Source: Terriglobia bacterium
Lineage (GTDB): Bacteria > Acidobacteriota > Terriglobia > 20CM-2-55-15
Direction: 5' to 3'
Length of the DNA: 64,000 nucleotides
NCBI GenBank assembly: GCA_963664115.2
Contig: CAXWPJ010000012.1
Span: 416,001-480,000, forward strand
A program made the translations under genes and the position numbers. The notes below the pieces were generated by a model. The model did no database searches. It was not told the DNA's origin and saw nothing but the letters and a program-made list of their open reading frames with translations. Every line of letters begins with the position of its first letter. Position 1 is the stretch's first letter. This document shows positions 540 through 50,329 of the stretch, in pieces.

Positions 540-812
540 GTTGATCCAGTTTGATTCACGTTGATCAAGGACAGGCCCGCCTCTCTTGCGCCTGGCCTTG
601 GCCAATCCCCTCACTGGTCATATCTAGAAATGTTCGAGCTGTGTCGGAGCACTGACGTCCATTGCGACTGCTCGCGCTCTTCGAACAGCTGGGGGCAGTC
701 TATAGAAACGGTGGGCGGAGAGGCAACGAATTCTCGAGCAAACATCCGCCTATTTCCTGGGATCTGCGGCTCCAATCATGGCACCGGCACCCGTTCCTTG
801 AGGATTTGAAAA
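540..812 (-). repeat. Kinase-junction module (kinase C-tail, spacer, degenerate kinase N-head)
   Basis: 776-811 reads FQILKERVPVP*. AGGCAACGAATTCTCGAG at 721 matches the copy at ~18417. From 663 the minus strand reads MDVSAPTQLEHF*I..., a degenerate kinase start. Confidence 0.6.
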
Positions 813-960
813 GACGAATCGTCGGCAGCGTGGAGCCATAATGACCAATAATATTGACTTGATCCGGTGGCGGGGTAATGGGTGCCTCGTCGACCCGGCT
901 AACAGCCCCGCAAGCCAATGAAGAATCTGAGCGAGAACGGGGCGTCCAGGAGGATTCGCG

Positions 961-1473
961 ATGTTAAACCGTTCTTGGCTTATTGCAGTTATGGCAGCGA
1001 TTGCCACCTTCTCCACCACGTCTGTCCACGCGCAGGCGCTGACGATGGAACGAACTTTTTTGACTAATTATGCGGCCAGCCAGATCGTGGCTTCGTGTAT
1101 GGCGATCGCGGCGCGCGAGAGCGCGAACATTGCCATCGCGGTCGTCGATCCGTACGGAAACCTGCTTGCCTTTCAAGCCGCTGAAGACAGCACCGAAACC
1201 GGGAGCCTGACCGCGCAACTGAAAGCCAAGACTGCGGCGCGCTGGCGCCGGGCGACGGTGGAACTGTTCGACCGCGTCAACAACCAGGTCAACCGTGCTC
1301 CGGAATGGATCGGCGATTTTCCGCAACCGGGCGGCTTTCCCATCTATGTCGAGGGCCAGATCATCGGCGCGGTCGGAGCCGGCGGCGGTGTTGGCAGTGC
1401 CGATGATGCATGCGCCGTCGCAGCTGTTGCGGCCGTCTTCGGCGATACGGCGAGTCTCACCCGTCCGGAATAG
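961..1473 (+). CDS. GlcG/HbpS-family heme-binding protein with signal peptide
   Basis: IAIAVVDPYGNLL, AQLKAKTA and GGFPIYVEGQIIGAVGAGGG motifs; signal peptide ending VHA. Confidence 0.85.
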   Translation: MLNRSWLIAVMAAIATFSTTSVHAQALTMERTFLTNYAASQIVASCMAIAARESANIAIAVVDPYGNLLAFQAAEDSTETGSLTAQLKAKTAARWRRATVELFDRVNNQVNRAPEWIGDFPQPGGFPIYVEGQIIGAVGAGGGVGSADDACAVAAVAAVFGDTASLTRPE

Positions 1474-1525
1474 AACTGTTGCTTCAAGGCACCAGATCCG
1501 GCGGGTCGGGACGAAGGACCGGCCC

Positions 1526-1577
1526 AGGGCACCGGCATCCGCTTTTCAATTCATCAAGCGAGTTCAGGACGATGTTG
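1526..1577 (-). repeat. Degenerate kinase C-tail remnant
   Basis: Minus strand reads NIVLNSLDELK/RMPVP with a frameshift; compare NTVLNWFEELKERVPVS at 18474-18527. Confidence 0.6.
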
Positions 1578-1634
1578 CGGTGTGGGATGAGAAGAACCGT
1601 TTAAATTCCGCAAAACGATATAGGCGGACAAGCA

Positions 1635-2636
1635 CTAGGGTATTGCCTCCGCCTCCGCCACCGCTTCTTCGTAAAGACTGCCGTACCATCGCTCTACCGT
1701 AACACCGGTCGTCGGCGAGTGATTTTCAGCAGCGAATTCCGCGTCAAACTCCCTCGAGGGACGTGCTTCCAGGATCTCGTCGAGTGTCATGCCTTGGGCG
1801 ACCATAGCGCGAACTCGGGCATGAACCGTGGTGATGACATCACGTAACGCGATCAGTTCTGTTCTGTTCGAGAGTTGTCCGTGGCCGGGCACAATTATTG
1901 TGTTCGGCGTCGTCATTTCGAGAGCCAGGTTGTAATTGTCAACGAAGTTTTCGGTCGTGCCACCGGCGCGGATGTTCATCGAAGGATAGTCTGTCGTATA
2001 TTCATCGCCAAAGGCCCACACATCGGAACCGCGGAAGTACACGGCTGCATCTCCGTCTGTGTGCGCGGGTTTCAAGGGCACGAAAACCACTTCCTCGCCG
2101 TTAAAGTGGAACGTCAGAAGCTCTGACGATGTCACTACAGGCAGGCCGCCGGGAGGATCCGAACCGGGAGCGCGGCCCCCCATCATGGCCCTGCGCAAGT
2201 TGGGTTGGGCGAATATAATCGCGCCCATCATGGCCATGTTTTCGTTGTTCTGAACGTGATCCAGGTGGGAGTGCGTGTTCACAACGAAGCGTATCGGCTT
2301 ATCGGAAATTTGTCGGATTGCGGCCATGATCTGATCGTAAAAAACGATGAAATTCGTATCCACGAGAAAAATCCCATCGTCGCCCGCGAAGACCACCACA
2401 TTTCCGCCTGCACCGGCAACCACGTATACCTGTCCGGCGACATGGCGGACCAGCACTTCGATCTGCGAAACTGCTTCGGGATCGGTAATTCGACTGTTGA
2501 ATCCACGTATATCGGGGATCGGACCCCCGGTCGGAATCGCTTGCCCGATAGCAGCGACGCCAAAGGAAAGAAGGCCGAGCACGGCAACGGTCGCAAGAGG
2601 CATCGTCGATCGCTTCATAGAAGTCAAACTCCGCAT
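1635..2636 (-). CDS. Exported MBL-fold metallo-hydrolase (cyclase-like)
   Basis: HSHLDH, AHTDGD and VPGHG motifs; signal peptide. Confidence 0.85.
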   Translation of the reverse strand: MRSLTSMKRSTMPLATVAVLGLLSFGVAAIGQAIPTGGPIPDIRGFNSRITDPEAVSQIEVLVRHVAGQVYVVAGAGGNVVVFAGDDGIFLVDTNFIVFYDQIMAAIRQISDKPIRFVVNTHSHLDHVQNNENMAMMGAIIFAQPNLRRAMMGGRAPGSDPPGGLPVVTSSELLTFHFNGEEVVFVPLKPAHTDGDAAVYFRGSDVWAFGDEYTTDYPSMNIRAGGTTENFVDNYNLALEMTTPNTIIVPGHGQLSNRTELIALRDVITTVHARVRAMVAQGMTLDEILEARPSREFDAEFAAENHSPTTGVTVERWYGSLYEEAVAEAEAIP

Positions 2637-2815
2637 ACTGAGTCGATTTTTCAGGGAAGTCTACTGTGCAGGACCATGCCCGTCAATCGCGACGCCCCAT
2701 GTGTATCTCAGGTGGCCTTTCGTTTCTGGTCAGCCCGGTCCTGTTGACGCGTCACACGCATGAGGTAAGATTCAGGGTAGGAACACTCCGTAAAACTGCT
2801 TACCCTGGGGCTCAC

Positions 2816-3910
2816 ATGACCTTGAAATTACAAATGGCATCTATTCTGTGCCTTGTACTGATGGCGCCAACACCCTTACCTGCTCAGCTCGAGCGGGATG
2901 CTCCCGGAGACCGGGGCGTAGACGAACCATCTCCGTTCGATGAATCGGCGCCCACTCTGGTTCGAGGCCAGGTCATCGCGGACAACCCGAGTCGACTCGT
3001 TCATCCCATCCCGGTTCGCCTCGAGAGCTTTGGGCAGCCCCTGGACACAGTATTCACAGACGGCAACGGAAACTTCGTGTTCGACAATGTCCAACCGGGA
3101 AATGTTTTCTATGTCGTGATTGAAGAGGATGGCTTCAGACCTGTTCGGGAGCGAGCAGATTTTGGGCCGGTCTCAGCCGTCTCAGCCGGGTTGCCCATTG
3201 TAATTTTTCTCGAAAGCGTAGATACCACAGACGATTCGATCACCGATGCCGGGGCCGTTGACTTGAACCAACTCATTTCGGACATTCCCCGGGAGGCGGT
3301 CGAGGCATTCCAGAAGGCAGCGGAAGAGTCCCAAAATGGCAACTATGAAAGATCAGCCGAACGGCTGGAAGAGGCCACGGAAATTGCACCCGATTTTTAT
3401 GAAGCGCAGAACGCGTTAGGGGTCGAGTATCAGAAACTGGGACGCCTGGATGAGGCGATCGTGCGTTTTGAAATCGCGATGGGGCTGAACCCGAATGCTG
3501 CGGAACCGGCCCTCAGCCTGGGCATTCTGCACCTTCAAGACAGCGATCTCCAGCTTGCCTCAAGCAAACCTGAAGAAGCTCAAGGAAGTCTTGAAAAAGC
3601 CTTCGGGTACCTGGAAGAGGCCGTCGAACGGGACGCCACATCCGCGACTGCCCAGTATTATTTCGGCACCGTCCTCTTCAAGACAGGAGCGATGGAGCAG
3701 GCCCGCGACCGGCTCGATCACGCGCTCGCACTCGATGAAACCTTGTATGCCGTGCGCCTGATGTTGTTCAACGTTTATCTAGCCCAACGCGATCCTGCGG
3801 CCGCTCTGAATCAACTCGAGACCTATCTTTCGGAATACCCGGACAGCCCGCAACGCGAAGCCGTCGAGGGGATCAAACTGGACCTTGAACAACAGTTGTC
3901 GCAACCCTAG
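2816..3910 (+). CDS. Exported TPR protein with N-terminal carboxypeptidase-regulatory-like domain
   Basis: TDGNGNFVFDNVQPG, followed by TPR units (APDFYEAQNALG, NPNAAEPALSLG). Start placed at ATG 2816. Confidence 0.8.
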   Translation: MTLKLQMASILCLVLMAPTPLPAQLERDAPGDRGVDEPSPFDESAPTLVRGQVIADNPSRLVHPIPVRLESFGQPLDTVFTDGNGNFVFDNVQPGNVFYVVIEEDGFRPVRERADFGPVSAVSAGLPIVIFLESVDTTDDSITDAGAVDLNQLISDIPREAVEAFQKAAEESQNGNYERSAERLEEATEIAPDFYEAQNALGVEYQKLGRLDEAIVRFEIAMGLNPNAAEPALSLGILHLQDSDLQLASSKPEEAQGSLEKAFGYLEEAVERDATSATAQYYFGTVLFKTGAMEQARDRLDHALALDETLYAVRLMLFNVYLAQRDPAAALNQLETYLSEYPDSPQREAVEGIKLDLEQQLSQP

Positions 3911-4083
3911 AACGCTGTGGTGGGGAAGATGAGCGTGTCGTCCGGACACAGGCGCGCTCTAATCAGCGAGCGTGCCGCATTTCACCCTTTCCAGTGCAGT
4001 CCTTTCTCTTCTTCCAACCCGTTACGGGTTGCAATGTCAATCTGGGGCCACCACTTTTCTGGGGCGTCTGCCCTCCCCTGAGG

Positions 4084-4464
4084 TCAGTGCTCATGCGACG
4101 ATGTCTTCGACTCAATGCGCCCCACTAACGCTTGGATCGCTTTCGTTTCGTCCTCAAACGTATCGAAGACTTTCGAGAGTTTTGTTAGTTCAAGAAGTTT
4201 TTTCACTTTCTTGGACGGGTTCAACAGACCAAGTTTGCTGTCGCCATTCCGTAGTGAATTATGGACACTGAAAATGGCTCCGAGCCCGGCACTGTTGATG
4301 TAAGAAACCTCGCTGAGATTGAGGAGCAATTTCACCGCGCCTTCCTCAAGAACAGGATTCACCGTCGCTCTGAACAGCCGTATTGAGTCCGCGTGAGATA
4401 ATTCACCCGACACGTCAACAATAACCACGCCGCTGATTCTTCGCGTATTCACCGACAGCGCCAT
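4084..4464 (-). CDS. STAS-domain anti-sigma-factor antagonist
   Basis: LNLSEVSYINSAGLG motif; AAAGGAGG RBS. Confidence 0.9.
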   Translation of the reverse strand: MALSVNTRRISGVVIVDVSGELSHADSIRLFRATVNPVLEEGAVKLLLNLSEVSYINSAGLGAIFSVHNSLRNGDSKLGLLNPSKKVKKLLELTKLSKVFDTFEDETKAIQALVGRIESKTSSHEH

Positions 4465-4483
4465 AAATGCCTCCTTTCATTAT

Positions 4484-4678
4484 TGCCGCCCCCACTTCTC
4501 CCGTTCCACATTTACGACGGAGTGTGCCAATCGCGCAGCGACCGGGAGTGGCACCTGAATCCATCGTTAAATTGCGTTGCGACAAGAACCGGGAAATCTT
4601 GCTAAAGAATATTAAAGGCAGAAGTTAGAAGCTATCAAATTCTCAAATTCCGGCAAATCTTGTATCAGAAGTTGAGAG
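4484..4678 (-). repeat. Kinase-junction module (palindrome, promoter, degenerate kinase N-head)
   Basis: 4601-4678 aligns with 14980-15056. ATG 4564 reads MDSGATPGRCAIGTLRRKCGTGEVGAA, versus MESGTKLGHYEVLSLRGKGGMGEVWRA at 14942. Confidence 0.7.
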
Positions 4679-4787
4679 ACACGCCTATTGAGCCAACCTT
4701 CGCCTCGATGAAGTCTCGATGAAGTATGATGATCCGTGCTGGTTTTTGGGTTTAAGATGCCCATTGCAAAGCGGAGTGGAGGATCAA

Positions 4788-5219
4788 ATGAGAACCTTGA
4801 TGACTTGGATCGCAGTTACGACCACCCTCGCCTCAGTGGCGTTTGCTCAGGCCTTGGAACCGGTACGGCTGGCGCCAGGCGATCTGGAATGGGATGGCAC
4901 GCCTGGTGCCGTGATGCGGGCCGGCATCGCTGGAGATAACGAAACTCCCGGCCTGTACGTTTACCGCGTACGTTTCCCCGAAGGATTTAGAATCGAACCC
5001 CACTTCCATCCAGACGACCGCCTCGTCACGGTGATGAGTGGCACGCTCCACATGGGTTACGGAAACGAATTCGATGAGGATGCGATGCGGGCACTCCCGG
5101 CTGGAAGTGTTTGGACCGAACCCGGACGGCAGGCCCATTTCGTCTGGGCGCGGAATGGCGAGGTCATCATCCAGGTGGTCGGTGTCGGACCATCGGGGAC
5201 CACTCAGCTTGAACGCTGA
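4788..5219 (+). CDS. Exported cupin-domain protein
   Basis: PHFHPDDR...VMSGTL and EPGRQAHF motifs; GGAGG RBS before ATG 4788. Confidence 0.85.
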   Translation: MRTLMTWIAVTTTLASVAFAQALEPVRLAPGDLEWDGTPGAVMRAGIAGDNETPGLYVYRVRFPEGFRIEPHFHPDDRLVTVMSGTLHMGYGNEFDEDAMRALPAGSVWTEPGRQAHFVWARNGEVIIQVVGVGPSGTTQLER

Positions 5220-5330
5220 GCGCGGCCTCCGGTCACAGGGCAGGGATGGAAGCTCCTGTTAGCGTTGGGAAGAACCCCACCCCAAGGACGATCTTCGGCG
5301 CAGGTCCGCCGTCGCAGAACCCCATCAAAA

Positions 5331-6890
5331 CTAGTTCGCCGCGTTGACAATACTAAGGAACTCCGCGTTGGTACCCACCCGGCCGTGAATCGGAACGTGG
5401 CGGTCGACATCCAGTCCCAACCGCTGCATGTTCCGGTAGAGCGTTCGCATTCTGCGGTTGAATGCGGGCGCTGCCGCACCCGGTGCGGGAGGGGAATAGA
5501 GGTCCGCATTGACCAGAAGCTTCTCTCCTGGCAGATAGGCAATCACCATGTTCTCGACGTGGTTCAGGTTTCGAAGCCCGTGGATCTCCATTGTCCGTTC
5601 GCCGTCGCTCAGGACGTAGGTTTCCGCCAGCGTCTCGAATCGATCGGTCGGGGTGGCAGTCGACGCCATCGGATGCAGCGACATCCGGTCCGGTTCGAGG
5701 GTCCGGGGCGCGGCCGAGAGCAAGATCCGTTCATAGAAATCCCGGTTTGCCAACTGCGTGACAATCTTGGCGCCATCGGAGAAGTACGTTCGGAGCCCCC
5801 CGATGTGATCAAAATGGTGGTGCGTGCTCACCACGTAATCGATCGTCTTGTCGGGAACGAGCCGGCGCACTTCCGCCATCACGGCCAGTGAACGTGCCTC
5901 ATTCAACGGCGCCTCGATCAGAACGACGAAATCGCGAAACTCAACCGCCACGCTGTTGTGGGATCCGCCCCCAATAAGCCACACGCCTTCAGCCAGACGC
6001 TCGCTTTCCACCCGGACCTCGGGGACCGCCGCACGACGCACGGCGTCGGGTATCGCCGGCGCGGCGTCGCTGAGATTTGTGCGAACGCTGGCCACATTGA
6101 CCTGAAGAAAGTTGGGATCGAGATACCAAAACTTCTGGGTGTAGTCATAGCCGCTGGCTCCGGCGTGCCCGTGGATGCTTGTCGGAAATTTGATGCCGTC
6201 GAATTCTTCGTAGTCTGTGTATCGGATCTCGTAAAGCATGTCGCCGAAAACGGAGTTTGCCACCCACGTCTGGACGTATTCAAGCATGTTCTGGTCGGTG
6301 AACATGCCGCTCAAACGGTACTTCCCCATCGCCATAAACGAGACCATGGTCACGGTCTGGACCGAGTCGTCGACCGCGAGGACCCGGCGCGTGAACGCCG
6401 TCAGGTCGTCACTGGCCATGGCTGCCTTGATGAAGCCGTGCGGCGTGAGAAGGATTTCCAGTCGCCGCAGCTCCACCGCGTTCGGAGTCGGTGCGGGATC
6501 GCCGCCCCGATCGTTCCAGGCGTAGTCGCCGTTGACGGCGGTGTTTCGGATCTGGTCTCCCTGGAGGGGCGTTCCGCCGCCGCCCTGCGGTGGGTAGTTA
6601 CCCTGACGGCGGGTCACTTCTTCCAACATCGACTGTGCGTCGTAATCGATCGTCCGGCTGTAGCGTGTCGTCTCGAAGTGCGGCCATCCCTCGCCGACGT
6701 CATGCAGGGTTGCGCTGTAGCTCTGACCGAGAGCCGCCACCCATCCGGTCCCGGAATACTGTATGGATCTCAGGTTGGCGGCGCCCATCGCTTCGGACGC
6801 GGCCTCGACGACCGACCGGGCATCCTGGGCGATCGCGGGTCGAACCGTCATTGCAAGAAGCACAATAAACATGAGGTATCGTCGGGTCAT
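5331..6890 (-). CDS. Exported large MBL-fold protein
   Basis: THHHFDHIGG, HVENM and VPIHG motifs; signal peptide from MTRRYL. Confidence 0.85.
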   Translation of the reverse strand: MTRRYLMFIVLLAMTVRPAIAQDARSVVEAASEAMGAANLRSIQYSGTGWVAALGQSYSATLHDVGEGWPHFETTRYSRTIDYDAQSMLEEVTRRQGNYPPQGGGGTPLQGDQIRNTAVNGDYAWNDRGGDPAPTPNAVELRRLEILLTPHGFIKAAMASDDLTAFTRRVLAVDDSVQTVTMVSFMAMGKYRLSGMFTDQNMLEYVQTWVANSVFGDMLYEIRYTDYEEFDGIKFPTSIHGHAGASGYDYTQKFWYLDPNFLQVNVASVRTNLSDAAPAIPDAVRRAAVPEVRVESERLAEGVWLIGGGSHNSVAVEFRDFVVLIEAPLNEARSLAVMAEVRRLVPDKTIDYVVSTHHHFDHIGGLRTYFSDGAKIVTQLANRDFYERILLSAAPRTLEPDRMSLHPMASTATPTDRFETLAETYVLSDGERTMEIHGLRNLNHVENMVIAYLPGEKLLVNADLYSPPAPGAAAPAFNRRMRTLYRNMQRLGLDVDRHVPIHGRVGTNAEFLSIVNAAN

Positions 6891-7329
6891 TGGTTTCTCT
6901 CCGAATTTGGTCGTGTTGGTCTGGACTGGAAATGGACTGGGCACAGTCTAACAAATCACCTTTGGCAGTCAATCGTTCTTAAACCTGGCCAATGAAACAG
7001 GGGCGGCATTCTGCATTGTCAGCGGTAGGTTATAAATTGATTTATCATGATTCGTAAATACGCCTTCCTCCGGTCGCTGTCGCCTTCGCCGGGTGTTGGC
7101 AGCATTCCGTAGTTGAACGGCTTGATTGACGGCTATTGGAACATGCTGAATACCCGGCTGACACTCGTGGGCGGGAAAATCCGTTCGGACCAGCGTTAAG
7201 CGGACAGAGAAGAGAAAATGGGGACGCTAAACCCTCACACGGGGGTCGCGGCCGACATTCTCCACATCCTCAGCTCACCGCTTCCCTTCCTCGAGTTCTG
7301 CTGGGGGAAGCCCTGCGGATTGCAGTCCA

Positions 7330-8463
7330 TCAGGGAATCGGCAGCAGAGGTCTCTGCCCTTCGGGCAAGTGCTGATCGAAGGCCGTCAACAGGACTGCAT
7401 CGCCTGAATGCTGCGCCATCAGATCGATGAAGTCAACCAGGTCTCTCTCTCCAAAAATCTCGAGGGCCCGGGCATAGGTTTCAGGGCTTACGCTGTGCAT
7501 TTGGAAAAGCTCACGACCGAATTCGATGAGAACGGCTTCTCTCTCACCCAGTGCTGTTACCGGCCCGCGATGGCGCACCTGGTCAATGATAGCCGGCTCC
7601 AAGCCGTCCCGGAGGGCTCGAAGCTCGTTCATCGTCCACTGATATTGAGCGTTGTGTTCGCGAGCGGTAACGAGAATCGCCAAGTCCACCAAGCCGCGCC
7701 CAACACTTGCCTCCAGAGAATCGAGACCCGCCCCATGAAGCCGGATGTGTCCCGGTCCCGTGCCCGCGGGGGCCATCGTGCGGCTGTAGAGAGTGGGCGC
7801 CGGGGCCGGGCCGTCTTCCAGACCTTGCTCCTGGACCTGTCGTAGCGGAAGACGGCTTCTTGAGTCCGGATGAATGTCATCGGGCAGAGCAAAAGGAAGG
7901 GGCAGAAATTGCTTCCATCCCGGAGGCATCTGTTGATTGACGGCGGTCAATCGCGTGCCCGTCGCTGTGTAGTTACCGATCAAGTCAACAATATCGACGA
8001 GACCGTTCGTGCCGAGGATATTCAAAGCACGCGCATAGGTTTCCGAGCTCAGTTGGAACGTTCCGAAGATCTCACGACCCAATTCAATGATGATCGATTC
8101 CTTCTCACCGAGTCCTGTCAGCGGCATGCGATAACGCACACGGTCGATCACTGTTGGATCCAATCCCACGGCAAGGGCTTCCATCTCGTGTAACGACCAC
8201 TCGTATGGCTGGTCGTGCTCGCGGGCCGAAACCAGGATCGCCAGTTCCGTCAAGGCGCGGCCGAGTGGGGATTCCCAACGGACGATGACTCCGGACCCAT
8301 GTTGCCGTATCGCGGCAACAGCGTCGGACGAGCCGGGTGTGTCGCGGACTGGAAGCCGGCTGCCCGAAGCCGGAAAGACGTCTCTGGGAAGAGGCAGTTG
8401 TGCACGTGCCGACAGTCCCAGAATGATCAGGACCCAAAGCACAGCGGACAGTCGATGGAGCAT
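7330..8463 (-). CDS. Exported protein with tandem carboxymuconolactone-decarboxylase/AhpD-like domains
   Basis: Internal duplication: ELAILVSAREHDQPYEW / DLAILVTAREHNAQYQW, and ETYARAL twice. Confidence 0.75.
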   Translation of the reverse strand: MLHRLSAVLWVLIILGLSARAQLPLPRDVFPASGSRLPVRDTPGSSDAVAAIRQHGSGVIVRWESPLGRALTELAILVSAREHDQPYEWSLHEMEALAVGLDPTVIDRVRYRMPLTGLGEKESIIIELGREIFGTFQLSSETYARALNILGTNGLVDIVDLIGNYTATGTRLTAVNQQMPPGWKQFLPLPFALPDDIHPDSRSRLPLRQVQEQGLEDGPAPAPTLYSRTMAPAGTGPGHIRLHGAGLDSLEASVGRGLVDLAILVTAREHNAQYQWTMNELRALRDGLEPAIIDQVRHRGPVTALGEREAVLIEFGRELFQMHSVSPETYARALEIFGERDLVDFIDLMAQHSGDAVLLTAFDQHLPEGQRPLLPIP

Positions 8464-8564
8464 TGATTTCTCCCGTGATCGTGATTACAACGCAGCCTAT
8501 CACGCCGCCGAGGGATCGCGAGATCCGAGAAGGTCAATCCGATGCCGCTCTCTGCTTGTCAAAC

Positions 8565-9563: not shown

Positions 9564-9589
9564 GAACTTTCCTTTCCTGACGTTTCCTG

Positions 9590-9680
9590 TGGACATACTG
9601 CTGTGCAGCCAATCGAGCCGCTCCAAACTCGCTAAACATTACTAAAGGTAGAAGTTCGAAGCAAACAAACTCTCAACTCC
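9590..9680 (-). repeat. Kinase-junction promoter segment
   Basis: GCTAAACATTACTAAAGGTAGAAGTTCGAAGCAAACAAACTCTCAAC aligns with 4601-4646 and 14980-15025. Confidence 0.55.
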
Positions 9681-11849: not shown

Positions 11850-12007
11850 AGCAGCTCCTTCGGGAATCTTTGGCAGCAATTCTAGCACTGCCGGCGACCA
11901 AGTCTGATCGAGACTTTTGAGGCCGTCCCGTCTTGTGAAGTCGAAACCGGTGTGAGATTCCAGTTCCAACTTCCAACGCTGGGCCAACAAAATCGAAATT
12001 ACAGTTG

Positions 12008-12118
12008 TCAACGTCCGACAAGATGATTTCGCAGGACTTGAACTTGAAATTATGGCGCCGGCACCCGTTCCTTAAGTTTTTCAAACGAGGTGTGAACAAC
12101 GACGATCTGTTGCTGTTC
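12008..12118 (-). repeat. Kinase-junction module (C-tail and palindrome)
   Basis: Reads EQQQIVVVHTSFEKLKERVPAP*. The 34 bp at 12008-12041 are identical to 15021-15054. Confidence 0.8.
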
Positions 12119-12177
12119 AGATGAGTTCGGCGACCAAGAATCAACTTCGACGTGAGAAAGGCTCTGACGGGCTACAC

Positions 12178-13239
12178 TCAGTCGTTGCCGGCCGTCAACA
12201 GGTTATACGCCGCCTCGACGTTGCGGTCGCGTTGCGGGACGTAGTTGGGAAGATCGCCGTAGTCGCCGAGCGCGTCGCTCGCCAACAGGTCTTCCAGCGA
12301 CGTTTCCGACTCCACCGCGCCGGTGATGGCGGCCTGGAGATCCTCGAAGAACTCCCGGTATGCGGTGAAGTCCGCTTTCGTGCCGACACTGCTGTGGCCG
12401 GGTGAAACAATATCGAAGTCCAGTGCTTCGACTCGCTGGAGTGAGTCGATCCACTGTGACAGCGTCCCGGTGCCGGGGAACCCCAGAGCGAGCCGCTTGA
12501 CGTTGATGAAATCCACCCCGTAGATCACTCGCTCCTCGGGAAACAGGAGCACCGTCGCGTCGATGGAATGGTTCGGTCCGGGATGGATGAGCTCCACGGT
12601 CTTGCCGCCCAGCGTGATCGTCAGGCGCTCGGAGTAGAGCATCTCCGGCCCCAGCACGTCCGCCAGTATCTCCCCCGCATCGAGATAGCCGTCGGCATTG
12701 GTGTCGAACGCATCGAAGTAGGGCGCCAGGTCGCCGCTGGCTTCGTTTCTATCGAGCCGCTGATCGCCGTCGGCATCGACCAGCGTCACTTGGACGGGAA
12801 AGCCGGCTATCGCATCCTCGAGCGCGATGGGCAGGTTCGCGTGCCCCACAAAGGTCGCCGTTTCGTCGAATACCCGGCCGCCGGAGGCATGATCCCAGTG
12901 ATAATGGCTGTAGAGCACGTAGCGCACGGGCACCCCGAACCGCTGTGCCAGTTCACCCTCCAGCCAGGTTGCGAAGTCGGCGTTGAGCGGGTCGGCAAGG
13001 ATGATCCCCTCGGCGGTGACGAGGAACACCGTGAAATGGGTGCCGTCCTGTGCACGGTAGAGATCCCCGGCGATCGGCACGATCTCCCGGGCAGGCTCCT
13101 CGCTCTGGGCTTGACCCGCCGGCGGCGGCGCGTCACCGGTGGAGAGGTCGGCCGGCTGATCGCTCCCTTGCTGCGAGCACGCGGCAAGGAATAGCAGCAG
13201 ACCCACGAGTAGCATCGGTGCGGCATATCTCATCATCAT
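12178..13239 (-). CDS. MBL-fold lipoprotein with an inserted EF-hand pair
   Basis: Lipobox LAAC; HYHWDH; EF-hand loops DADGDQRLDRNE and DTNADGYLDAGE; SPGHS. Confidence 0.85.
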   Translation of the reverse strand: MMMRYAAPMLLVGLLLFLAACSQQGSDQPADLSTGDAPPPAGQAQSEEPAREIVPIAGDLYRAQDGTHFTVFLVTAEGIILADPLNADFATWLEGELAQRFGVPVRYVLYSHYHWDHASGGRVFDETATFVGHANLPIALEDAIAGFPVQVTLVDADGDQRLDRNEASGDLAPYFDAFDTNADGYLDAGEILADVLGPEMLYSERLTITLGGKTVELIHPGPNHSIDATVLLFPEERVIYGVDFINVKRLALGFPGTGTLSQWIDSLQRVEALDFDIVSPGHSSVGTKADFTAYREFFEDLQAAITGAVESETSLEDLLASDALGDYGDLPNYVPQRDRNVEAAYNLLTAGND

Positions 13240-13480
13240 TAACTATCCCCGGCAACGTGCCGATCTGATCGGTGATCTGGCATGGACCTAGACGTGTATC
13301 CGCCTCGATGGACGCGCAACTCCTCTAAACGAGCTCGCACGTAAAACTCACAGAACTATATAGAGCGCGCGGGATGGGGGTCAAAGGAAAAGTGTTGCTC
13401 ACCACTCCACCAACGTCTTCTCCTCAACCTCCCGAAAGCACTTCGGGCGCTTCGCGGGCTCCGGGGGCAGGCCACGTCGA

Positions 13481-13546
13481 ATTAATAGCAGGGTTCAGGT
13501 ATTACAGTTCTCAACGTCCGAGAAGATGATTTGTCGGGACTTGAAC
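13481..13546 (-). repeat. Kinase-junction palindrome copy
   Basis: ATTACAGTTCTCAACGTCCGAGAAGATGATTTGTCGGGACTTGAA, similar to the 12008 and 18428 copies. Confidence 0.75.
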
Positions 13547-13590
13547 CGTCATCTGCCTCCCTTAACTTCCCCGAAGCCGACTTCTCGGTC

Positions 13591-13623
13591 GTAGGCGGGC
13601 TGCATCATCACTACGAGCGGCGT
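13591..13623 (+). pseudogene. Possible remnant of an rve-type integrase/transposase C-terminus
   Basis: Reads VGGLHHHYERR; very short. Confidence 0.35.
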
Positions 13624-13968
13624 GATGTGTAATCGATGTGCTCTTTCTGTCGGGCAGGGTCCGGAGCGCCATGTCCGGGCCGGGCTAGCTGCCGGGGATC
13701 GGGGATCGATCCGGGTGCACTTGCCAGGTCATTCGCAATGCTGCGCCTTTCATCGAACTGTCCGTCGTTGTAAACAGCCGTAAAGAGTGGCTGGATGCGT
13801 TTTGGCGAATGACGCCTGCCCGGTAAAGCTCAACTCCCGATACCTCTTGGATAACGTGATGGGAGCTCCGCATGGGAGCTCCGCATTGCGTGCGCCGGGG
13901 AACGGGGAGTACACTCAGCGCAGTTATTTCCATGCCTCGGGCCCGGTGCCACGAAAAGGGAGGTCTTC

Positions 13969-14706
13969 ATGCGACGTTCAGTGACGGTAAACACAACGAT
14001 TGGATTGATTGCGGTATTCGGTATGTTCGGGATGCTTTCCGGCGCCTTGGCCCAGGAGACCCCGGCGCAGATGGTGGCCCCGCTGTTCCTGAAAGTGGAT
14101 TGGGTGCGGCCGGCTAGCCAGGAAGACACCTCCCTCCGCTACACGCCGGTTCAGGAAAACATCGCCGATCCGAACGTGGAGATCCACTATTACGGGCCGG
14201 GAGCCAAGCAGATCCTGACCACGGGCAATCCGGAGAGCGACGTTCGGCCCTACGGCGTGTGGACGGGGACGGCCGAAGGTCCCTTTGCCATCACCTTCGG
14301 GATGAAGAACGGCAACTATGTCGATCTCACCGGCCTGGCCAACGTCCGGTGGTTCACGAAGACTTCGGGTTTCCATGTCGTGCGTCCCGTCGTAAAGCTG
14401 GCCGACGGCACCCTGCTGGTCGGCGACCGGACTTTCTCTTCGGTGCCTAAGCTCACCCTAAGCGAGTTCTCCCTGACCGATATTCGCTGGATCAAGCTGG
14501 AGCCGGAGCGCATGGTCACGGTCAACAGCGGCCGGTCCCCGACGAACGAAGTCTGGGCCCCCAATCCGGACCTCACCCGCGTCGCGGAAGTCGGCTTCGC
14601 CGACCTGTATCCCGGCAGCGGCCACGGAACCGGCGGGTATATCCACCTCGCCGGGATCGAGGTCTACGGCAAGACCGTGCCGCGAGGGGCGAGGAGCAGC
14701 CGTTAG
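13969..14706 (+). CDS. Exported hypothetical protein (beta-rich)
   Basis: 245-aa ORF with GGAGG RBS and signal peptide; high GC at third codon positions. Confidence 0.75.
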   Translation: MRRSVTVNTTIGLIAVFGMFGMLSGALAQETPAQMVAPLFLKVDWVRPASQEDTSLRYTPVQENIADPNVEIHYYGPGAKQILTTGNPESDVRPYGVWTGTAEGPFAITFGMKNGNYVDLTGLANVRWFTKTSGFHVVRPVVKLADGTLLVGDRTFSSVPKLTLSEFSLTDIRWIKLEPERMVTVNSGRSPTNEVWAPNPDLTRVAEVGFADLYPGSGHGTGGYIHLAGIEVYGKTVPRGARSSR

Positions 14707-14942
14707 GCTTTTTCTCGAAGCGGTCTTGGGCGATCCAAGAACGGTCGCGCCCACCGAGTGCCCTTGGCTTCACGTTCAAACCGTGCGAGGCGATCTGCAT
14801 CCTTCGCAAACTCTTCGGGCAGAGTCTTGATAGCAATTTCACGCCCGAGTTTCGTGCCACGCGCACGCCACACTTCCCCCATTCCGCCCTTACCCCGGAG
14901 GCTCAGGACTTCGTAGTGACCAAGTTTGGTGCCTGATTCCAT
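14703..14942 (-). pseudogene. Truncated Ser/Thr protein kinase N-terminus (subdomains I-III)
   Basis: GKGGMGEVWRA...REIAIKTLP...RLARFEREAK, after which similarity is lost at ~14763. Confidence 0.9.
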
Positions 14943-15140
14943 GATCTAGTGTGCAGTTGAAATGACCGAGAAAAACTCGGTAAAGGATACTAAAGCAGGA
15001 AGTTAGGCGCTATCAAATCCTCAACGTCCGACAAGATGATTTCGCAGGACTTGAGAATGGATTTCGAAGGTTCTACGGGACTGGCTCCTGTTGCTTCAGT
15101 TCTTCAAACCAGTTCCCGACGACGTTGATTTGGAGTGGCA
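14943..15140 (-). repeat. Best-preserved kinase-junction module
   Basis: PLQINVVGNWFEELKQQEPVP* (stop at 15073-75), palindrome 15020-15055, TTGATA...TAGTAT promoter-like element, then the kinase ATG at 14942. Confidence 0.85.
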
Positions 15141-15192
15141 GCGGTTCTCTGGGTCCTCCGGTTTCGGTGCGAGATGATTTTCCTTTAGACTT

Positions 15193-16053
15193 TTACTCTG
15201 GTGGCTCGACCACAGGACGAATAATGTTCCCGTTCTCATCTTGATATACCGCTTGTTCCAGGCCGGACCCGCCGATGGTGGGCTGAAGGTGCTCGACGTC
15301 CCTTTCGTAGTCCATGCAGGCATGAGACATAATCCGGTCCGGAGCCGTCACGCGCTGAAGCGTCTGCATTGTCGTAAACGGCTTCACGAAAAACACGGGA
15401 TCGGTATGCGTCACCGTGTACTCGATCGTGTTTGGGTCGGCCAGGTGAAATCGTTCGGTGAGATGCAGCTGGTCACTGTGTTCGTGACCGGAAATGTCCA
15501 GCCACGTTCGGTCATTGATGCTCACTGTGTCCACAACCAGCGTGTCTCCCTCCCACTTGCCGAGCGCGTGCCCCGTCCATTCCGGATAGTCATGAATGTA
15601 TTCGGGATGATCCCGCCCATCCGTATAGATCAGGCGGAAGGTGTACTGAGATTCGCTGAGGATTACGAGCACGTCAGGGCGCTGAACAAACATGGTGGGA
15701 TGGCTACGGATGACCATCCTGGACGGACCCGGGGGGAGGCAGAATGTATTGGGATCCTGAGCGTGGTCGACGGTCTGATATCTTTCGTATCCATATGCGG
15801 TGAGAATCATTTCATCACCCGGCACAGTGACCTGGGAGAGGTCCCTGGCAGTCCGTCCAGTCCAAACACCGCTGAGGTCCACGGGTCCGATATCCACGGG
15901 TCCAGATGGAGAGTCTTCTCCCAAATACCACCAGGCACCCTCCAACCCAGATCCGGGCGCACTCAATTGCGCCTGGGCAGGGATCACCACGAGGATTAAA
16001 GCGCAGAACTGTGCCCACGCGGCAAAAGTTAAAACCGAAAAACGCTTGCTCAT
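15193..16053 (-). CDS. Exported 'WEGDTLVVD'-family hypothetical protein (DUF6152 partner)
   Basis: DLSGVW, DPNTFCLPPG, IYTDGRDHP, GKWEGDTLVVDT and HSDQLHLTERF motifs. Confidence 0.8.
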   Translation of the reverse strand: MSKRFSVLTFAAWAQFCALILVVIPAQAQLSAPGSGLEGAWWYLGEDSPSGPVDIGPVDLSGVWTGRTARDLSQVTVPGDEMILTAYGYERYQTVDHAQDPNTFCLPPGPSRMVIRSHPTMFVQRPDVLVILSESQYTFRLIYTDGRDHPEYIHDYPEWTGHALGKWEGDTLVVDTVSINDRTWLDISGHEHSDQLHLTERFHLADPNTIEYTVTHTDPVFFVKPFTTMQTLQRVTAPDRIMSHACMDYERDVEHLQPTIGGSGLEQAVYQDENGNIIRPVVEPPE

Positions 16054-16231
16054 GCTGAGCCTCCATATCGAATCACGATTCTGCTTCGAGGGATCCAGAC
16101 CGGGATTCGACTCGCCTAACATCTGATTTTAATTCGTGCTGTCCAATGCAAACGCTGCCGCACGTCGCCATCGCCCAAAGTCTCTGACGGTGACGCTGTC
16201 GGGAGCGACCTTGGCTCCTGAATAGTTGTCT

Positions 16232-16663
16232 CTAGTTGTTGCCTCTAGGCCCGGTAGGTCCTCTATCGTTGGCCGAACCTCCGTACACCCGACGACCATC
16301 GGGCATCGTCACGTTCCGCCCGTTGATGAGGTTCGACCCGTCTCTGGCTCGGAAGCCCTCCACTCTGACGCTATCTCCAATCTTCAGATCGTCTTTGCGC
16401 CAGCCTCTCCTGAACAGATTGTTCGGCGTGCCACCCTCGATGGCCCAATTCTCCACCGCGCCGCTTTCGTCTTCTACATCCACGAACAAGTAGATGTGCG
16501 GATTCCTCCACTGCACTTCCGTGATTTGGCCTTCTACCGTAATGGGCGCATTCGAATCGTATTGGGCCGCGAACGAATGGTGTGCCTCGAGGGAGAGTCC
16601 TCCCAGGAACAGGGCCACACCCACGGCGAATGCACCCGACCACGCTGGTTTCGTTAGCTTCAT
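16232..16663 (-). CDS. DUF6152-family exported protein
   Basis: Signal peptide, then A|HHSFAAQYD; WRNPH; ENWAIEG. Confidence 0.8.
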   Translation of the reverse strand: MKLTKPAWSGAFAVGVALFLGGLSLEAHHSFAAQYDSNAPITVEGQITEVQWRNPHIYLFVDVEDESGAVENWAIEGGTPNNLFRRGWRKDDLKIGDSVRVEGFRARDGSNLINGRNVTMPDGRRVYGGSANDRGPTGPRGNN

Positions 16664-16849
16664 CGAGCCCTCCAGACTGAAATCCGTTTTGGGGTTGCTG
16701 CGCTTCCTCGACTGAGATGCCCGCTAGATCTAACTACAGGTGGGATGTGTAAGCAAGAAAAGTCTCAAGAGAAAAGTCTCAAGAGCATTAGGAGAAAATA
16801 AGAGCCCTCCCCCCGATAATGATTGGGGAAACAGCGCCGACTCCAACGT

Positions 16850-17190
16850 CAGATCCAGCGGTAGCCGTCCTTTCTCTAACCCAGCCGTCAGAGTGTCCCT
16901 TTCGACACATTCCATGACGACGTAGTGTGTGGGGTCCTGTTCGCCAACATCGTGAAGGGTGCAGATATCAGGATGGTTCAGGCTGCTTAGAGCGGTGGTT
17001 CACGGCAACGGAGTTGGTAGAGGTGTGGGGCCGCTGGCCGTCCGGCGAGACATCACTGTGGAAATCCAGGCGAGGTCGTGACATCGTGGGGTCTGAAGAA
17101 CCGCATCGCAAGTTCTCGTTTCGCTGTGCCAGCTTAAACGCGGCTGACGTTTCGGAACGTGTAGTTCGTGCGGCAACCCTATGAGCGCTG
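16850..17190 (-). pseudogene. Scrambled Ser/Thr kinase fragments
   Basis: DVSPDGQR (~17030-17053, typical of the C-terminal WD/PD40 region) lies upstream of LSSLNHPDICTLHDVGEQDPTHYVVMECVERDTLTAGLEKGRLPLD (subdomains IV-V). Confidence 0.75.
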
Positions 17191-17256
17191 CGGGGAGCGC
17201 GATACCCCGTGGATCAAAAACAGAACGTGCGTTTAATGGAAAAGGTGAGCATTGCG

Positions 17257-18330
17257 ATGTCTATTTCACGATTAGCGAGACCTTGGTTTGGGGCAACAAT
17301 AGTCATTGGGATTGCACTGCTGGGAGGCCGCGTCTACACGCAGGATGTTCAGCCCGTAAACAGTGGCGCGAATCCGTATCGCACCATTCGAAATTGGGGC
17401 ATGTTACCGGAGGAAAGACCGTGGGGGGCCGCGAACGGCGTCGACATCGACCCCGACGGTCAGTCCGTCTGGGTGGCCGACCGATGCGGAACACGCGAGG
17501 GCTGTGTCGGGTCCCAAGTGGACCCGATTCAGAAGTTCGACGAGTCAGGAAACCTGCTCGCGAGCTTCGGCGGAGGCATGTTCGTGTGGCCGCATGGTCT
17601 CCACGTCGACCAGGATGGAAATGTGTGGGTGGCTGACTCGCGACGCCCGACCGCAGAAGAGCTCCAGACGTTTCCCGGAGAAAAAGACAAGGGCAGCGTG
17701 GTGGTCAAGTTCAGCCCGGAGGGCGAGGTCCTCATGACGCTGGGGCAGTTCGGCGTGGCCGGCAGTCCGCCCGATGCCTTGACCGACCCGATCGACGTTG
17801 TGACCGCTCCAAACGGCGACATTTACGTGACCGAGAGCCATACCAGGGGCCAGGACCCGGACGTCGTCGGACGCATCTCGGTGTTCGACAGCACCGGGCA
17901 GTTCATCAAAACCATCGGGAAATTGGGGACCGGGCCGGGCGAGTTCCGAAGACCCCACGGCATCGTGTTCGACTCGCTTGGCCGCCTGATCGTTGCCGAC
18001 CGGCAGAACCACCGCATCCAGATCCTGGACACGGACGGAAATTATATTGGTGAATACCGAGAGTTCGGCCGCGTGAGTGGGCTGACCATCGATCAGGACG
18101 ACACGATTTATACGAGCGACTCCGAATCAAACGCGAGCAATCACCCAGGCTGGCGCAGGGGGATCCGGATCGGGAGCCTCAAAGACGGCAAAGTGACGAT
18201 GTTCATTCCTGGCCACGAAACGGATTCCCCCGAAGGCGCTGCCGGGGAAGGAATCGCGCTCGACGCCGCCGGCAATCTGTACACTGCAGAAGCAACAGTG
18301 ACGGGAGTGACAAAGTACGTCAGGGATTAG
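17257..18330 (+). CDS. NHL-repeat protein, peptidyl-alpha-hydroxyglycine lyase-like
   Basis: FVWPHGLHVDQDGNVWVAD and EFRRPHGIVFDSLGRLIVADRQNHRIQ repeats. Start uncertain. Confidence 0.85.
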   Translation: MSISRLARPWFGATIVIGIALLGGRVYTQDVQPVNSGANPYRTIRNWGMLPEERPWGAANGVDIDPDGQSVWVADRCGTREGCVGSQVDPIQKFDESGNLLASFGGGMFVWPHGLHVDQDGNVWVADSRRPTAEELQTFPGEKDKGSVVVKFSPEGEVLMTLGQFGVAGSPPDALTDPIDVVTAPNGDIYVTESHTRGQDPDVVGRISVFDSTGQFIKTIGKLGTGPGEFRRPHGIVFDSLGRLIVADRQNHRIQILDTDGNYIGEYREFGRVSGLTIDQDDTIYTSDSESNASNHPGWRRGIRIGSLKDGKVTMFIPGHETDSPEGAAGEGIALDAAGNLYTAEATVTGVTKYVRD

Positions 18331-18399
18331 AGGCCATTCGTGAGGCACTGGGCCAACGATGTGTCGGATTAGAACTGAGGTCGTTGGGGAAGGTCTAGC

Positions 18400-18527
18400 A
18401 AGAAGGGTAGATAGCAAGGCAACGAAATTCTCGAGATCCGAGAAGATGATTCATCGGGACTTGACCTTGAAAATCAGGACACCGGGACCCGTTCCTTCAG
18501 TTCTTCAAACCAGTTCAGGACGGTGTT
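18400..18527 (-). repeat. Kinase-junction module (C-tail and palindrome)
   Basis: NTVLNWFEELKERVPVS* (stop at 18474-76); palindrome at 18431-18464. Confidence 0.85.
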
Positions 18528-19117
18528 CCCCGCCGTTCACTGTCACGAAACCACCGGTGATCTTGCCCGTCTCAGCCTTGGCAGCGCCGGCATCAACAGG
18601 GGATAGAGGCGCGTCGACGTCACCAGGCCTCCCATGATTACGACTGCCATGGGTTTTCGGTTTCATAGCCCCGAGCAGTGCCCGCCATTGCGATAGGCGA
18701 AGGCGCCAGAGCGGTCATCAATGCGGTCATCAGAATGGAGGCCAAACGTTCCTGGGCTCCTCAAACGGGCAACTCCGTCCCGGGCATCTAAGTCGAGTTT
18801 CGCCTGGAAGGGCGCTTGGCAGCGGTTTGTGACTGATTCTGGAGATGGGCGTAGTTCATTGATCCGTTTAGCCGCCACAGGCTTTCTCTCAGATTGAGAG
18901 TTACGACCGTCTGCCCGAAGAGCCCTGGCGCGGGACGGCTGTGGGGGGCGACAAGTTCGACGATCGATTAAATTGACTTGAGGGTGAGCCGGGATATAAT
19001 TTCGCCCGCGGGCACGACCGAGCCACGGTCGAGCAACGTTCAGCGCGACAGCGTCTCCAAACAAACACCTAGACACGCCATGCTTCAACTGGCAGACCAG
19101 TCACGAGGGTCAAACTA

Positions 19118-20962
19118 ATGAGCAAACCGAGCAAACCGCCCGTTAACCGCCGCAATTTTCTGAAGGGTGCTGCGGCTGGTGCAGCAGCGATCGTCGCCGA
19201 ACCCGCCCTGGCAGCGACGCCAGAAGGCGCACTTCCAGCGCCGCTGCCATCGAGTGCTGTTCAGGTGGGGGACGACGGAACGCGCTACGCGTCTGACTAC
19301 ATGGTCGATCTCTTCAAGTCTTTGGGGCTCGAGTACGTCTTAGCGATGCCGGCCGGGAACTTTGCTGGGCTCATTGAATCGGTGGCCCACTATGCGGGCA
19401 ACAGCAACCCCGAGTGGATCACCTGCATGCATGAAGAATCCTCGGTGGCCATGGCGAACGGGTACGCGAAGATTGAAGGCAAGCCCGTGCTGGTGTGCGC
19501 ACACGCAACGGTGGGGTTGCAACATGCCACGATGGGCATCTATGACGCCTGGTGCGACCGGGTGCCAATCTACATGGTGCTGGGAAATACTCAGGATGCG
19601 ACCCAGCGTGGCGGGTATGTCACCTGGGTCCACAGCGCCCAAGACCCGTGTGGCCTGGTTCGCGATATTACAAAGTGGGACGACAATCCCATCTCGACGG
19701 CACATTTTGCCGAGTCGGCTGTGCGCGCTTACAAGATAGCCACGACTCCACCGATGGGGCCGGTAGCACTCGTGCTGGACGAGCACCGCCATCTTGAGCG
19801 AGTCCCCGCGAATATGCGAATTCCCACTTTGAGCGTGCCTACGGCGCCTCAGGGTGACGCGTCAGCCGTAGCCGAGGCGGCGAGACTTCTGGTGGCGGCT
19901 CGGAATCCTGTGATCACCGTCGGCCGAACCGCACGCACGCCCGCGGGCGTGCCACTGCTGGTCGAACTGGCCGAGACCTTGCAGGCTGGAGTCGTCGATC
20001 GATGGCACCGGCGGATGAACTTCCCGTCGCGTCACCCACTCAATGGCGGCGATTTGAACGATGCCGATGTGATTCTGGCCCTGGAGGCAGGCGATATCGC
20101 CGGCATGGCTCGCCAGGCCAAACAACGTGACGCCACGGTGATCAATGTCAGCGACACTGAACTCTATCTCAAGAGCAACTACCAGGATTTCTTCGAATAC
20201 GCCGAAGTGGATCTATCCATAAGCGGAGACGCGGAGGCGACCCTGCCAACGCTGATCGAATCGGTGAAGCGCTTGATCACGCCCAATCGCCGAGTCGCCT
20301 TCGAGGCACGCGGCCGGACGGTGGCAGCGGCGAACCGGCAGGCCCTGGACAGAGAGCGCATAGCGGCCACCCACGGCTGGGACGCCAGCCCGATCAGCAC
20401 GGCGCGGCTTTCCATGGAATTATGGGAGCAGATCAAGAACGAAGACTGGTCGTATGTGTCGGGCTGGGTCACATGGCCCCTGCGGCTCTGGGATTTCGAC
20501 AAGCATTACCAATTCATCGGCCGCGCAGGCGGAGAAGGCATCGGCTACCATCTGCCGGCGACCATCGGAGCTGCTCTCGCCAACAAAAAGTATGGCCGGC
20601 TGACGGTCTCGATCAACGGCGATGGGGACTTCATGGTGGCGAACGGTGCATTGTGGACGGCCGCACATCATCAGATTCCGATCCTGATCATCATGCAGAA
20701 CAACCGTGCGTACCATCAGGACTACATGGACATGGACCGCATTGCTCATGTGCGGGACCGGGGAAGCTCCTCGACAATGGGTATCGGAACCGAAATCACA
20801 AACCCCGATATCGACTACGCCCAACTCGCGCAAAGTTTAGGCGTCGCAGCCGAAGGTCCGATTTCAGACCCCAGGGATCTGGCGGCGGCCATTCGGCGTG
20901 GCATTGAGGTCGTCAAGGGGGGGCAGCCCTATCTCATTGATGCCATCACACAACCGCGGTAA
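19118..20962 (+). CDS. Tat-exported thiamine-diphosphate enzyme (acetolactate synthase/benzoylformate decarboxylase superfamily)
   Basis: NRRNFLK Tat motif; MHEE catalytic Glu; GDGD...NN ThDP-binding motif. Confidence 0.9.
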   Translation: MSKPSKPPVNRRNFLKGAAAGAAAIVAEPALAATPEGALPAPLPSSAVQVGDDGTRYASDYMVDLFKSLGLEYVLAMPAGNFAGLIESVAHYAGNSNPEWITCMHEESSVAMANGYAKIEGKPVLVCAHATVGLQHATMGIYDAWCDRVPIYMVLGNTQDATQRGGYVTWVHSAQDPCGLVRDITKWDDNPISTAHFAESAVRAYKIATTPPMGPVALVLDEHRHLERVPANMRIPTLSVPTAPQGDASAVAEAARLLVAARNPVITVGRTARTPAGVPLLVELAETLQAGVVDRWHRRMNFPSRHPLNGGDLNDADVILALEAGDIAGMARQAKQRDATVINVSDTELYLKSNYQDFFEYAEVDLSISGDAEATLPTLIESVKRLITPNRRVAFEARGRTVAAANRQALDRERIAATHGWDASPISTARLSMELWEQIKNEDWSYVSGWVTWPLRLWDFDKHYQFIGRAGGEGIGYHLPATIGAALANKKYGRLTVSINGDGDFMVANGALWTAAHHQIPILIIMQNNRAYHQDYMDMDRIAHVRDRGSSSTMGIGTEITNPDIDYAQLAQSLGVAAEGPISDPRDLAAAIRRGIEVVKGGQPYLIDAITQPR

Positions 20963-20972
20963 GGAGGCTGGA

Positions 20973-21398
20973 TTGACCAAGATATCACCAAACTCGAAGG
21001 TGCTACCCGGATGGGCGGTCTGGCTCATTTCTCTGACTGCCTTAGTGGTGCTCTTCGTGCCGGTCTCTGGCGCCGAAACTCAAGGCAATGCGCCCGCCGG
21101 AAATCCGCAAAACGGTAAGACTGTCTTCATGAACACCGGCTGCTACCGATGCCATGGAACTGTGGGGCAGGGCGGCCCGGGTGGACGGCTGGCCCCGAAC
21201 ACTATTCCGTTTGGGATCTTTGCTTCCTTTGTGCGCAACGGAAAAAGAAGCAATCCCAATGCCAACGTGAATTGGTCGGGAATGCCGCCTTATTCGGAGA
21301 AATTCATATCGAATTCCGAACTCGCAGATATTCACGCTTATCTTGCCAGTATTCCGCCATCGGCTCCGGTCGGGAGTATACCGTTGTTGAACGATTAG
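20973..21398 (+). CDS. Monoheme cytochrome c
   Basis: CYRCH and GMPPY; TTG start after an AAGGAGG that overlaps the upstream stop. Confidence 0.85.
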   Translation: MTKISPNSKVLPGWAVWLISLTALVVLFVPVSGAETQGNAPAGNPQNGKTVFMNTGCYRCHGTVGQGGPGGRLAPNTIPFGIFASFVRNGKRSNPNANVNWSGMPPYSEKFISNSELADIHAYLASIPPSAPVGSIPLLND

Positions 21399-21608
21399 AG
21401 TATGTCCCCGCGATTCGGTCCGTTGCCGGTCCAACTTCCGATCAAAAATGGCCAAACGAACGGCTCTTTCTCTATTTTTGAAATTCTCAACGTCAAGAAG
21501 ATGGCCACTTTCGACCGATCCAGGCACGGACCACAAGTCCCCCTGATATCAGTCAGACTTATATTCGCCACCCACACCCGCCCGTGCTATCTTCGTCCGC
21601 CGACACGA

Positions 21609-50328: not shown

Positions 50329-50329
50329 G

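Follow-up and report, generated by a model that had tools for sequence, protein, structure and literature searches.

A two-armed 38-bp site bounds shuffled gene blocks in a Terriglobia genome

The textbook examples of site-specific gene-cassette systems are integrons and the dif modules of Acinetobacter. Sedentary chromosomal integrons and integrase-less attC clusters present co-oriented site arrays between unrelated accessory genes, with IS110-family insertion sequences (IS) at the sites, and the attC core carries invariant AAC and GTT triplets. REP/REPIN elements are short intergenic palindromes that occur in many copies, sometimes as inverted pairs, are targeted by IS and flank a RAYT gene. 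Here we analyzed a 64-kb stretch of a Terriglobia bacterium (the window; positions 416001-480000 of contig C12 in the 4.9-Mb source genome, G000; other G numbers denote relatives), in which a first-pass annotation had described intergenic spots carrying parts of one module, a kinase C-terminal tail, a palindrome, a promoter and a kinase N-terminal head, between unrelated cargo genes. That observation as a whole was confirmed, with all listed parts found on the minus strand, and the proposal that the locus is a cassette platform holds. The anchor of this platform is a two-armed 38-bp site, and the kinase ends are deletion relics that provide secondary homology. We describe a real cassette-shuffling platform with a candidate enzyme.

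The 38-bp site and its kinase surroundings

We built a site matrix from four window sites, iterated it to convergence and used the reversed genome as a control. The module, previously taken to be an array local to the window, turned out to be genome-wide, with 191 site, 145 tail, 69 head and 58 promoter matches in the source genome and none for any of the four models in the control. Removing assembly duplicates and requiring the core left 155 non-redundant sites, 135 of them with both arms. The features group into 30 clusters totalling 613 kb, some duplicated through contig overlaps, on 10 of the 12 contigs. Copies are thus genome-wide yet clustered rather than scattered in random orientation, as neighboring sites were co-oriented in 114 of 119 cases; their median spacing was 2.5 kb. 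Site orientation showed no clear relation to GC skew, which is itself weak. A tail lies upstream of 71 of the 155 sites and a head downstream of 27, and only 13 sites have both, which does not fit the tail-spacer-head junction as the main anchor. The constant part of the junctions is the site, not the kinase junction.

The site consists of two arms around a 6-bp spacer. Its core, read on one strand, is ACGTCCGAGAA GATGAT TTCTCAGGACT, to which conserved outer extensions are added, so conservation reaches beyond the 11-bp arms. The spacer was identical in 92% of the 135 full sites. Complementarity at five variable arm pairs equalled the expectation under independence, i.e., the arms do not covary, and variable positions were linked within each arm (V 0.53 and 0.24) with little or no linkage across the spacer (V 0.04-0.17). 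A second type of site with another spacer (type 2) follows 23 of 263 type-1 sites in G000, G002 and G003 in inverted orientation, at a distance of 20-120 bases downstream (0.6 in shuffles). Because of the invariant spacer, the lack of arm covariation, the within-arm linkage and the inverted second type, the site is constructed, as far as its sequence tells, like a double-stranded tyrosine-recombinase site.

The exact site pattern occurs 114 times in the source genome. In 40 relatives searched, four congeners had 71, 31, 8 and 0 copies, two other genomes had a single copy each, and the remaining 34 had none. Named database records with the pattern were solely Terriglobia assemblies (10 stretches), and no viral contig contained it. 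Homologous sites were also found in G007 (43 matches in 300 kb, with palindromes scored on each strand) and G004 (30 matches in 220 kb), with none in either control. In these two genomes, the sites sit between the tail and the promoter of mostly intact tandem kinases, of which about 18 (G007) and 8 (G004) are full-length among the matches listed, which supports the tandem kinase ancestry proposed earlier. Both spacer types occur there in inverted pairs, type-1/type-2 pairs being common in G007.

The kinases combine a protein kinase domain with PD40 repeats. Only 4 of the 69 heads in the source genome open into full kinases (877-902 aa), located on other contigs or elsewhere on C12; the statement that no intact kinase remains is thus not true of the subfamily as a whole. 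Kinase bodies had been thought to be replaced by incoming cargo. They look eroded by deletion, as tail and head homology stops anywhere from 8 to several hundred codons and 9-18 bp of microhomology was found at three of the five head-cargo junctions testable against a relative, including that of the window head at 14771. We infer that the early cassettes were most often kinases, which deletion then eroded while their tails still offered extra homology. An intact, more divergent kinase of 859 aa lies on the opposite strand at C12:410223, about 5.8 kb before the window. In several genomes, an element occupies one fixed position inside kinase tails (G000 C2:764671 and C6:31711; L075, L202, L204).

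Several IS are found at the site. Two IS110-family elements, one just under its curated cut-off, lie at the site in 7/7 and 6/8 copies, and an IS30 in 6/6 copies. Composites of a recombinase and IS91 had entered the spacer itself in 3 cases; elsewhere, they were inserted at a distance of 25-35 bases in 5 of 6 copies, and the remaining copy adjoined a degenerate arm. One such composite, encoding a 306-aa tyrosine recombinase and an IS91-type transposase, lies outside the window at C1:92884-95360, with six further identical copies. A reading of the arms as transposon terminal repeats around a 5-bp duplication was rejected, as it predicts arm-flank linkage, which was not seen.

Block shuffling and the candidate recombinase

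We compared the source genome with 735 kb of the 6.4-Mb genome of the congener G002, picked around its sites. Window cargo was recovered at scattered places in G002 (86-98% identity), consecutive G002 blocks map to different clusters in G000, and neighbors differ between the two genomes. Among 148 × 98 G000-G002 site pairs, none shared both flanks, 17 shared the upstream flank only (five of them being one IS) and 19 the downstream flank only. For example, one G002 site combines the upstream side of a site on C10 with the downstream side of window site 13501. Homology often switches within the site where no kinase remnant is present, and about 10 of 18 independent downstream-sharing pairs diverge right up to the site edge. 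Moreover, two clusters of the source genome share a 1327-bp site-to-site block at 99.3% identity. Ends of shared non-IS blocks fell at sites in 31 of 142 cases versus 2.6% of random island positions and at tails in 17 of 142 versus 2.2%, an 8-fold and a 5-fold enrichment that alignment run-on through paralogous sites may have inflated. Only 5 of 142 ends were at a promoter or head (2.6% at random), i.e., hardly any enrichment, and 7 were at IS. The scrambled cargo order and the enrichment of block ends at junctions support a cassette platform derived from tandem kinase arrays, with the site rather than the whole junction as its anchor.

Two observations concern the assemblies. Near-identical segments of the source genome (C6:19099-46165 and C11:1-9528 and 55272-63536) differ in block order at sites and may be two strain haplotypes or recent duplications. 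Contigs from four sequencing runs of near-identical strains end at the repeats, and the joints are short.

The window was described earlier as integron-like with no integrase in it; a candidate recombinase is found outside it, in the rest of the genome. Among the 27 matches to tyrosine recombinases in the source genome, one Xer-like protein of 316 aa (C5:52189-53139) is flanked by two type-2 sites, each followed by a promoter and a head, with arrays running away on both sides. Its catalytic motifs are intact. It falls under the XerC, XerD and IntI cut-offs (61 bits versus 265 for IntI), and the structures most like it are those of Xer proteins. Homologues were found in 7 of the 40 relatives, and those of G007 and G030 also adjoin a kinase promoter and head in back-to-back orientation. 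None was found in phages, and matches in plasmids were limited to 7 records (44-59%). Serine resolvases and Y1 transposases were set aside as catalysts since no family member was tied to the clusters. The recombinase of the IS91 composite was also set aside because, although it targets sites, G003 yielded no high-scoring copy.

The linkage between sites and recombinase was also investigated in metagenomes, using a site model trained on G000, G004 and G007 sites without the test loci and scored on contigs with recombinase homologues. The 266 kb flanking the homologues contained 25 sites, compared to 4.7 in shuffles, and 80 kb next to other recombinases contained none. A site lay upstream at 13 of the 51 loci, where 1.8 such loci were expected. 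A first model based on G000 arms alone had given 1/51 versus 0, and a second, generic, arm-only model 5/52 versus about 5% of shuffles. Clear enrichment was obtained only with the spacer-class model, and the result therefore hinged on the third model tried.

We favor, with a probability of roughly 0.6, an explanation in which a Xer-like tyrosine recombinase recombines 38-bp sites of the same spacer, so that blocks switch neighbors. The junctions are copies of the site, which divides about 30 chromosomal clusters into gene blocks, and the 316-aa protein would be the catalyst, cutting and rejoining sites with like 6-bp spacers. Recombination between two type-1 sites would excise and insert blocks. 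Before it is resolved, the junction formed at the spacer may often move along the shared arm and tail, so that arm alleles would become separated from their flanks. Short-homology deletions would have taken out kinase bodies and fused blocks, so that tails and heads are probably what is left of kinase genes formerly occupying many blocks, and long tails could supply extra homologous recombination.

Several results weigh against this explanation. No homologue of the 316-aa recombinase was found in G002, G003 and G004, which are 95-97% complete and all site-rich, and that of G001 is broken. The model detected no upstream site at 38 of the 51 metagenomic loci, an inverted type-2 partner accompanies only 23 of 263 type-1 sites, and 82 of the 142 shared-block ends (58%) lie away from any site, tail, head or IS. 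Where the downstream flank is at least 90% identical (18 independent pairs), arm positions 25-32 match near background, as do inner arm positions 13-14 in 18 upstream-sharing pairs. A strict spacer-only crossover keeps arm and flank together and therefore does not predict this uncoupling; branch migration following an initial strand exchange could account for it, and so could homologous recombination. Finally, this sequence analysis revealed no circular intermediate or recombination reaction.

General homologous recombination at tail-site-promoter-head repeats, with the site kept as the binding site of a different protein, e.g., one regulating the kinase promoter, is closest to the idea of the first-pass annotation. 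It accommodates the crossovers within tails and heads (17/142 ends at tails), the arm alleles unlinked from their flanks and the site-rich relatives lacking the recombinase. However, the 38-bp site is the sole shared sequence at many switches, a head is downstream at only 27/155 sites, ends at promoters or heads are hardly enriched, and unrelated metagenomes show a link between the site and recombinase families, making this alternative rather unlikely. Host XerC/XerD could also act on the sites, as in Acinetobacter dif modules or in TLC-type elements with a degenerate XerD arm. The 11-6-11 geometry agrees with such a role, one arm equals the host XerC arm at 8/11 bases, and XerC, XerD and a phage-type integrase family are the only tyrosine recombinases common to G000, G002 and G003. 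We still regard it as improbable. The host genome has one dif, of canonical sequence, with a score of -16.5 in the site-family model, the dif XerC arm score is no better than 3% of random comparable 11-mers, site conservation exceeds the 11-bp arms, and G004 and G007, despite a canonical dif, have widely divergent site arms.

It is highly improbable that the rearrangements are driven by IS110, IS30 and the recombinase-IS91 composites inserting at the spacer and then recombining with one another. In all, 19 of 21 copies of the three IS families and several recombinase-IS91 copies lie in or beside sites, and the same IS are present in G002; most switched sites, however, have no IS, and elements exploiting a pre-existing site leave its two spacer types and its cross-genus conservation unexplained. 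Plain decay of tandem kinase arrays, with junctions passively kept and no cassette movement, is hardly tenable. Variable break points and microhomology at kinase junctions, as well as some cargo without a flanking site in G002, are what decay would leave, but it is already contradicted by the scrambled, site-bounded blocks: both neighbors were kept in 0 of 36 informative site pairs, a site-to-site block is duplicated at 99% identity between clusters, and 155 sites hold a near-invariant spacer while kinases decay.

Going further than recombination at like spacers, we tentatively propose for Acidobacteriota a chromosome-scale counterpart of the integron, in which a dedicated Xer-like recombinase family and two spacer classes could make about one eighth of the genome reshufflable. 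Receptor-like kinase genes would have come first and exported enzymes later, strand exchange with branch migration would swap whole arms, and sites would be served in trans where the enzyme has been lost.

The module and its cargo in the 64-kb window

All sites, tails, promoters and heads described below are on the minus strand of the window. The site matrix matched type-1 sites at 11998-12043 (two arms and the 6-bp spacer, with a 34-bp core at 12008-12041), at 15011-15056, in a complete tail-site-promoter-head module, and at 18421-18466, whose downstream block is also in G002 (93%). A further type-1 site at 13501-13546 has no kinase tail and is the start point of a block common to G002 (96%). 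Just upstream of it, at 13565-13592, a second, weaker site-like sequence with a different spacer was read by eye, under the model threshold; site-flank comparisons revealed this upstream class at other sites as well. Decayed copies include a two-arm site at 4639-4677, ahead of a promoter and detected through half-site matches, and a strongly decayed site at 725-775, read from the sequence under the model threshold, with the tail at 776 on one side and a promoter-like leader on the other. Of the regions that had been described as spacer-only copies, 13481-13546 in fact contains the full site at 13501-13546, 9590-9680 holds a copy of the promoter motif, and the weak one at 21478-21510 is a half-site under model thresholds at which a block common to G002 ends.

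The five kinase C-terminal tails translate as had been claimed (776-811, 1526-1577, 12050-12118, 15073-15140 and 18474-18527), that at 1526-1577 being frameshifted. The promoter model identified the conserved promoter-like motif of the kinase leader, which presumably functions as a promoter, at 14976-15013, a strong match at 4598-4635 and a copy ahead of a DUF2272 gene at 9628-9665. The head reported as well preserved at 14942 is indeed a clean 60-codon kinase start (14763-14942), joined to cargo at a 9-bp microhomology. As for the two heads listed as decayed, the one at 4505-4564 is indeed decayed and lies behind the strong promoter match, and the other, around 600-665, is very weak.

Five cargo blocks were found elsewhere in G002. 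They carry an HbpS-like gene and a tail (779-1474, 88%), a metallo-beta-lactamase-fold exported protein (12146-13546, 96%), a 245-aa protein of no Pfam family (13815-14771, 98%), a DUF6152 gene and its partner (15164-16771, 94%, without a flanking site in G002), and an NHL-repeat protein with a site and tail (17162-18525, 93%). The window encodes three metallo-beta-lactamase-fold exported proteins (1635-2636, 5331-6944 and 12178-13239), all far under curated beta-lactamase cut-offs. An Rfam search of positions 1-24000 returned no match. An IS1380-family transposase is encoded at 37747-39279, and the same element adjoins several sites elsewhere. A small gene at 23747-23819 contains an exact, in-frame 39-bp tandem duplication, which could be an assembly artefact. 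Judging from the similarity of their translations, 47387-53570 and 58503-62490 probably contain sulfate assimilation and siroheme genes.

Comparison with described systems

Full-text literature searches, covering the main articles, returned no description of the site system, and the recombinase family could bear another name in supplements. The consulted portion of a recombinase classification does not mention Acidobacteria (PMC8138268), and that of a Solibacter paralogue study reports kinase and integrase expansion and does not mention such sites (PMC3174227). With its own site grammar, a candidate enzyme and an extent of about 0.6 Mb of a 4.9-Mb genome, the site system could explain the expansion and reshuffling of kinase and exported-protein families in some Acidobacteriota. 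It likewise identifies the sequence that two IS110-family elements and an IS30 target. Present integron finders would miss such arrays. The system is directly testable, with one 316-aa protein and a 38-bp site whose natural arm variants mark the crossover.

Like chromosomal integrons, the system has co-oriented arrays, arrays without a nearby recombinase and IS110-family elements on its sites. It is not an integron. The site lacks attC hallmarks (GTT in 50% and AAC in 4% of the 135 sites, no arm covariation), and the cargo comprises 1-3 genes in either orientation. The source genome has its own IntI (440 bits, cut-off 265), which has a separate attC-like array and lies at a distance of 195 kb from any site; together with the missing triplets and the lack of arm covariation, this led us to reject an attC/IntI reading. 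The locus L012:5400-10900 holds a true integron integrase and, with it, a short attC-like hairpin array that bears no relation to the sites.

As with REP/REPIN-RAYT systems, the genome contains two RAYT-like genes, one of them beside a site. These genes (L236:540-1319 and 3150-3659) are under the curated cut-off, the first is about 300 bp from that site, and it is the only site near either. Unlike REP/REPIN elements, the sites show no hairpin covariation, have a directional, invariant spacer, are strictly clustered and co-oriented, and coincide with block ends. The attP of CTX phage and other Xer exploiters, in the account consulted, likewise have two dif-like sites, inverted and close together, with different central regions (PMC4246890). 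Here, the inverted partner is found at only 23/263 sites, the arrays are not at the host dif, and neither phage genes nor viral matches were found.

The dif modules of Acinetobacter resemble the system in several respects, judging from the parts of the reports that we drew on. Both have two-arm sites with a 6-bp spacer that bound shuffled modules, multi-module site arrays and specialized IS aimed at the sites (PMC13141974, PMC12907356, PMC10132070), the targeting seen here paralleling that of IS hunting pdif sites (PMC10132070). In dif modules, successive sites have opposite orientations; inverted site pairs occur here too, commonly in G007 but at only 23 of 263 type-1 sites in G000, G002 and G003. 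Crossover in dif modules is restricted to the spacer and takes place between like spacers; here, the spacer is near-invariant and linkage breaks across it, but arm alleles are unlinked from their flanks. The host dif of the source genome, a single canonical copy at 108 kb on C2, shares the geometry of the site. On sequence grounds, the system is nonetheless not a host-Xer dif module: its arms are longer and match those of the host XerC and XerD sites at 8/11 and 5-6/11 positions. It also differs in consisting mostly of direct repeats with one spacer, in at least 150 chromosomal copies, in that a dedicated Xer-like recombinase appears to be implicated, and in that arm alleles leave their module.

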